Shown here: positions 10,583 through 10,693 of the stretch, piece after piece
Numbering within the stretch: the stretch's first letter is position 1
Layout: every line of letters starts with the position of its first letter
Notes under the pieces: model-generated
Database searches by the model: none
The model's input: only the letters and a program-made list of their open reading frames with translations
What the model was told of the DNA's origin: nothing
Translations under genes and position numbers: made by a program
NCBI RefSeq assembly: GCF_003018115.1
Contig: NZ_CP027457.1
Length of the DNA stretch: 64,000 nucleotides
Strand: one strand, 5' to 3'
Source: Escherichia coli
GTDB taxonomy: Bacteria; Pseudomonadota; Gammaproteobacteria; Enterobacterales; Enterobacteriaceae

Positions 10583-10693
10583 GTTATATGCCTTTATTGT
10601 CACAGATTTTATTTTCTGTTGGGCCATTGCATTGCCACTGATTTTCCAACATATAAAAAGACAAGCCCGAACAGTCGTCCGGGCTTTTTTTTA
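10583..10693 (+). ncRNA. micC: MicC small RNA (ompC antisense regulator)
   Basis: GTTATATGCCTTTATTGTCACAGATTTTATTTTCTGTTGGGCCATTGCATTGCCACTGATTTTCCAACATATAAAAAGACAAGCCCGAACAGTCGTCCGGGCTTTTTTTT matches MicC as I recall it; ompN-ydbK intergenic location as in K-12. Confidence 0.85.

Follow-up and report, generated by a model that had tools for sequence, protein, structure and literature searches.

Positions 10583-10692 on the plus strand of the window, the 64,000-nucleotide stretch of Escherichia coli DNA that was analyzed, carry with a probability of about 97% the micC gene, which encodes an Hfq-dependent, trans-acting small RNA (sRNA) with its own promoter, an intrinsic terminator, and a 5' end that pairs with the leader of the ompC mRNA. 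MicC is a textbook porin regulator with relevance for outer-membrane permeability and antibiotic uptake. All testable features that define it were found in the window copy, namely the covariance-model score, orthology, synteny, complementarity of the seed to ompC, structure, and terminator, and nothing substantive spoke against the assignment. The gene is already known and ordinary and this copy has nothing unusual; the significance of the result is confined to correct annotation, and the copy adds nothing to the picture of MicC.

Identity and extent of the gene

A comparison of the whole window with Rfam 15 yielded a plus-strand match to the MicC family (RF00121) at 10580-10700 with a score of 125.3 bits (E = 2e-19). 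This score is 35 bits higher than the gathering score of 90 bits, and the match spans the full length of the model (positions 1-123 of 123), which places the RNA within the family. An earlier note on this DNA had recognized MicC at 10583-10693 on the plus strand and had proposed an Rfam scan and a comparison to K-12 as checks; both the covariance-model call and the identity to K-12 confirmed the gene, its strand, and its place, whereas the end had been set one base too far. The letters at 10583-10693 read GTTATATGCCTTTATTGTCACAG...GACAAGCCCGAACAGTCGTCCGGGCTTTTTTTT, followed by an A, and direct reading of the sequence gave a T-run of exactly T8 (10685-10692). Since base 10693 is the A past the T-run, the RNA comprises 10583-10692 and is 110 nt long, with the G at +1 as its first base and the final T of T8 as its last. 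The end at 10693 had retained the 111-nt length of the K-12 gene. The 5' end (G10583) was taken over from the K-12 annotation.

In the curated record of K-12 MG1655, micC (b4427, "small regulatory RNA MicC") is annotated as an ncRNA at NC_000913.3 1437121-1437231 (+) and sits between ompN (b1377, -) and ydbK (b1378, -). The window shares this ompN(-)/micC(+)/ydbK(-) order and is thus orthologous to K-12 in both sequence and position. Only two differences from K-12 were found within 10520-10725: a T instead of a G at 10562 (about -21), which is the single substitution in the promoter region, and a tail of T8 rather than T9, apart from which the whole transcript is identical. The T9 tail accounts for the annotated length of 111 nt in K-12 as opposed to 110 nt in the window.

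Genomic context

The gene on the ompN side (9222-10355, -) encodes a porin of 377 amino acids that matched the OmpC-subfamily porin model NF007841 with 594 bits (cut-off 484), and its syntenic gene is annotated as ompN, a quiescent OmpC-family porin, by the K-12 record and by PGAP. Its location on the minus strand bears out the earlier description of micC as divergent from ompN. On the other side lies ydbK/nifJ (10721-14245, -; ydbK in K-12), coding for a pyruvate:ferredoxin (flavodoxin) oxidoreductase of 1174 amino acids (TIGR02176, 1630.7 bits, cut-off 911). This gene, which the earlier note had not mentioned, is convergent with micC, and its stop codon is situated 28 nt past the micC T-run.

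Of 5426 complete E. coli genomes, 5412 contain the 365-bp intergenic region between ompN and ydbK, with a median of one copy, and the exact sequence recurs unchanged (100% identity) in many unrelated strains of the species, O157:H7 among them. No RefSeq feature underlies the intergenic match in the E. coli records listed, and micC is named only in the curated K-12 record. The first 25 kb of the window (1-25000) had their best match, with 99.2%, in O103:H2 and O111-type strains among the 5426 complete E. coli genomes. Upstream of the porin gene, an intact ttcA (tRNA 2-thiocytidine synthetase; 7536-8471, -) adjoins uspF (8647-9153, -), whose listed open reading frame (ORF) starts 24 codons upstream of the start of the UspF profile match. 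In K-12 the Rac prophage interrupts ttcA about 2 kb away from micC, whereas the intact window ttcA next to uspF indicates that this prophage is absent here.

The earlier note had also stated that the pairing of ompN with micC mirrors that of ompC with micF. This parallel is established in the literature, being drawn by Dam et al. (2017; PMC5745476) with reference to Chen et al. (2004), and the K-12 ompC locus indeed has micF divergent from ompC. Both MicC and MicF are Hfq-dependent sRNAs that are divergent from one porin gene and repress another by pairing near the ribosome binding site. However, MicF is unrelated in sequence, belongs to another Rfam family, targets ompF, and is under other regulators, and its partner ompC encodes a major porin that is expressed, in contrast to the quiescent ompN beside micC (PMC5745476).

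Seed region and pairing with ompC

The 5' target-pairing (seed) region, as obtained with RNAduplex against the K-12 ompC leader, encompasses MicC nt 1-22 (10583-10604, +). Its longest perfect stretch is 16 nt: MicC nt 1-16 (GUUAUAUGCCUUUAUU, 10583-10598) is the perfect complement of ompC positions -30 to -15 (AAUAAAGGCAUAUAAC). This target site stops two nucleotides short of the GAGGG Shine-Dalgarno sequence, and MicC nt 17-21 pair further upstream. The duplex formed by nt 1-22 has a calculated energy of -26.5 kcal/mol, which was reached by none of 1000 shuffled seeds (mean -13.8) and by none of 1000 shuffled targets (mean -14.6). The leader used for these calculations is that of K-12, as the source strain's own ompC lies outside the window; of the 5370 E. 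coli genomes with a match to this leader, 5358 show an identity of 99% or more, from which we infer the same target site in the source strain. The seed length that pairs with Salmonella ompD is 12 nt, and a search within the window for a second target complementary to MicC nt 1-12 with at most one mismatch returned only micC itself.

The computed pairing reproduces the published model of a 22-bp duplex. According to Dam et al. (PMC5745476, citing Chen et al., 2004), MicC is a 109-nt, Hfq-associated RNA encoded opposite ompN that prevents binding of the 30S subunit by forming a duplex of 22 bp close to the start of ompC; for K-12 MicC, the same source refers to Hfq binding and Hfq-dependent repression (citing Chen, 2004; Zhang, 2003). 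For the window copy, the dependence on Hfq, the block of the 30S subunit, and the way micC is regulated would hold by analogy, being carried over from the literature on the identical K-12 sequence. After transcription from its own promoter and termination at its intrinsic terminator (both described below), the single-stranded 5' end of MicC would pair with the ompC leader shortly before the Shine-Dalgarno sequence, and binding of the 30S ribosome would be blocked, leading to less OmpC porin. In Salmonella the same 5' seed has also been found to pair with codons 23-26 inside the ompD coding sequence and to guide cleavage by RNase E (PMC3469820).

Promoter region

A putative -10 hexamer (TATTCT, 10571-10576, +), which ends 7 nt before +1, was assigned from its conservation across genera, where it reads TATTCT, TATTAT, or TATGAT. 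Further upstream lies a conserved promoter block, AAAATAAAAATTATAC(T), at 10537-10553 (+), which contains a putative A/T-rich UP-like tract and a weak -35 candidate (TATACT, 10548-10553) separated from the -10 hexamer by a 17-nt spacer. In an alignment of the 80 nt upstream of micC from 20 sequences of 6 genera, the block AAAATAAAAATTATAC (10537-10552) is nearly invariant while the flanking promoter sequence is variable. A simple sigma-70 scan of 10300-10800 called no promoter on the plus strand, which is explained by the weakness of the -35 candidate under the scan rules; this missed call, like that of the terminator below, was not counted as evidence against micC. The micC-lacZ primer SD2 (PMC5745476) ends with ...CGCGG, immediately upstream of G10583. 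Taken at the level of sequence, the conserved promoter footprint and the terminator are consistent with expression of micC in the window strain.

On the minus strand, a sigma-70-like site running from 10523 to 10496 (TCGATA-16-TATCAT) could be the ompN promoter. It includes the motif GTGAATG (10511-10517), which is kept across genera and may belong to ompN. If this site serves ompN, the promoters of micC and ompN may stand back to back, an arrangement that would be in keeping with a report in which fusions to micC and to ompN were induced in parallel by beta-lactams as well as by depletion of sigma-E (PMC5745476).

Secondary structure and terminator

Following the Rfam consensus structure, MicC forms a middle stem-loop (10618-10650, +), in which GUUGGG (10618-10623) pairs with UCCAAC (10645-10650), and a Rho-independent terminator (10660-10692, +) that consists of a hairpin (10660-10688) and the T8 run. 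In the minimum-free-energy fold, the core stem of the terminator (10663-10686) is formed by AAGCCCGAAC and GTCCGGGCTT, which enclose a loop of 4 nt and are interrupted by a single A-C mismatch (10670/10679). The GC hairpin and T8 that had been noted at the end of the gene are therefore both present. Hfq-dependent sRNAs are characterized by a Rho-independent terminator with a long poly-U tail; the GC-rich hairpin and U8 of MicC have this form at the level of sequence and are presumed to be the Hfq-binding 3' module, a role suggested by the literature.

The z-score of the whole-RNA fold is modest (-2.23), as expected for an RNA with a long unstructured seed. When the Rfam structure was imposed on 26 homologues, 94% of the cells were paired, as compared to 31-57% in slid controls. 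Five pairs changed on both sides, and four of these are located in the middle helix (four of its six pairs). The middle helix had 85.8% of its cells paired, and the terminator helix 98.1% with one C-G/U-A compensatory pair. RNAalifold applied to the MAFFT alignment gave the terminator only, and the middle helix was hence tested by explicitly naming the Rfam structure. Both elements of the consensus structure, the middle stem-loop and the terminator hairpin, are thus conserved and show covariation.

A simple terminator scan of 10300-10800 called no terminator on the plus strand and the hairpin on the minus strand only. The scan rules forbid the A-C mismatch, without which the loop would exceed 8 nt on the plus strand, whereas on the minus strand this mismatch is a G-U pair. 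The minus-strand call runs from 10686 to 10663, has the tail GTCTTTTTAT, and lies 35 nt past the stop codon of ydbK; the corresponding RNA has a folding energy of -26.4 kcal/mol and a z-score of -4.69. The hairpin is probably a bidirectional terminator common to the convergent micC and ydbK genes. The extra G-U pair on the minus strand makes the hairpin stronger for transcription that arrives from ydbK. The mismatch at 10670/10679 is shared by the window and K-12. Of the 25 other aligned homologues, two have it as well (E. coli MS1050 and Escherichia sp. MOD1-EC7003), and the remaining 23 show a perfect A-U pair at this position.

One speculative and improbable extension is that this bidirectional hairpin gates read-through from ydbK toward ompN. 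These two genes are located on the same strand, and any RNA that extends past the hairpin would contain a sequence perfectly antisense to MicC, so that MicC could be titrated or destroyed when ydbK is induced. If true, expression of ydbK and ompN would be coupled to OmpC levels.

Homologues and allelic variation

A single search of reference genomes at the DNA level with the exact 21-nt MicC seed retrieved 30 loci from Escherichia, Salmonella, Citrobacter, Superficieibacter, Pseudocitrobacter, and a metagenome-assembled genome (MAG) labelled Raoultella. Because these loci were picked by an exact seed match, they are uninformative on the conservation of the seed across genera. All 30 share the layout of seed, variable middle, and terminator within an RNA of 100-114 nt. 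The hairpin GACAAGCCCGAA...TTCGGGC is kept in all of them except the Pseudocitrobacter copy (L032) and is followed by T7-T10. In 29 of the 30 loci, ydbK is convergent and follows downstream at a distance of 117-146 nt from the micC start; the exception (L014) has just 246 nt of downstream sequence. A divergent ompN-like porin gene lies upstream in 24 of the 30, and four of the six misses have too little upstream sequence to judge. The other two are the Salmonella loci of subsp. diarizonae and arizonae, which have more than 3 kb of upstream sequence and no porin. In subsp. diarizonae (L013, 8205-9101), uspF is the immediate neighbor of micC and no porin gene intervenes, and in subsp. arizonae (L031) a porin gene was not found within about 4 kb upstream of micC; both retain the convergent ydbK. 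These loci, which differ from the window in missing ompN beside micC, indicate that the ompN-micC pairing is typical but not obligatory, and that adjacency of porin and sRNA genes is common without being universal.

MicC of Salmonella enterica resembles the window copy in its 5' seed of 21-22 nt, its terminator, and the convergent ydbK, and the copy of subsp. diarizonae scored 122.8 bits on RF00121. It differs in the middle region and in a terminator stem that is fully paired, without the A-C mismatch of E. coli. When the eight most divergent loci were rescanned with RF00121, four passed the 90-bit threshold. The shortest homologues (L007, L021, L025, and L032; 100-103 nt) remained below 90 bits despite having the seed, the terminator, and the synteny, and would therefore be missed by annotation pipelines. 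These short homologues belong to Superficieibacter, Pseudocitrobacter, and an Enterobacteriaceae MAG.

Within E. coli, about 500 genomes carry a divergent intergenic allele with an identity of 80-90%. One example found by BLAST (E. coli MS1050, L002 1516-1631), which is 87% identical, retains the terminator and the first 22 nt without change. Its differences, among them a 5-nt deletion, are confined to the middle of the RNA, where the loop is remodelled, and to the promoter-distal intergenic DNA. This allele scored 105.7 bits on RF00121, above the threshold, and its unchanged seed constitutes the independent evidence for seed conservation. In E. coli EM18-18-42 (L003, 1790-2564), the seed-bearing 5' half of micC and the ompN N-terminus have both been lost through an IS1 insertion; judged from its sequence, this strain is a natural double knockout of micC and ompN.

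Alternative interpretations

Three other interpretations of the locus were considered, each of which is contradicted by evidence. It is highly improbable that the hairpin with its T and A runs serves solely as the intrinsic terminator of ydbK and that the upstream "sRNA" is unexpressed intergenic sequence. The minus-strand-only terminator call past the ydbK stop codon and the strong fold of the minus-strand RNA agree with such a function, but it leaves unexplained the 80 nt upstream with the seed and its 16-nt ompC complement, the covarying middle helix, and the promoter block, as well as the full-length Rfam match and the curated ncRNA annotation in K-12. A 110-nt transcript from the plus strand has moreover already been reported for the identical K-12 sequence (PMC5745476). 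Since a bidirectional terminator is compatible with a micC gene, termination of ydbK at this hairpin is an addition to the assignment as micC and not an alternative to it.

The two differences from K-12 might suggest a decayed or silent allele, caused by the T/G exchange at 10562 or the shorter T8 tail. Such a state is very unlikely given that the exact 365-bp intergenic sequence is shared by many unrelated E. coli strains as described above, that 10562 is a spacer position that varies in the alignment across genera, and that tails from T7 to T10 all occur among the homologues. The chance that a small protein is encoded instead of, or besides, the RNA is practically negligible. A mechanically predicted ORF (10619-10810, +; 63 amino acids) overlaps the 3' two-thirds of micC, but its TTG start lies inside the middle helix, and it reads on through the terminator until it lies antisense to ydbK. 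The middle region differs between close relatives by indels of 5 to 12 nt, which are incompatible with a conserved reading frame, and no such frame was seen for this ORF across the homologues. On the grounds of these indels and the passage through the terminator, it was rejected as coding, and micC is retained as the gene at this locus.

Other small RNAs in the window

Four other Rfam sRNAs scored above their gathering scores in the window: FnrS (134.8 bits; 5652-5769, +), McaS/IsrA (118.4 bits; 2179-2274, -), RydC (92.5 bits; 53684-53747, -), and the sok antitoxin RNA (111.5 bits; 54307-54458, -).
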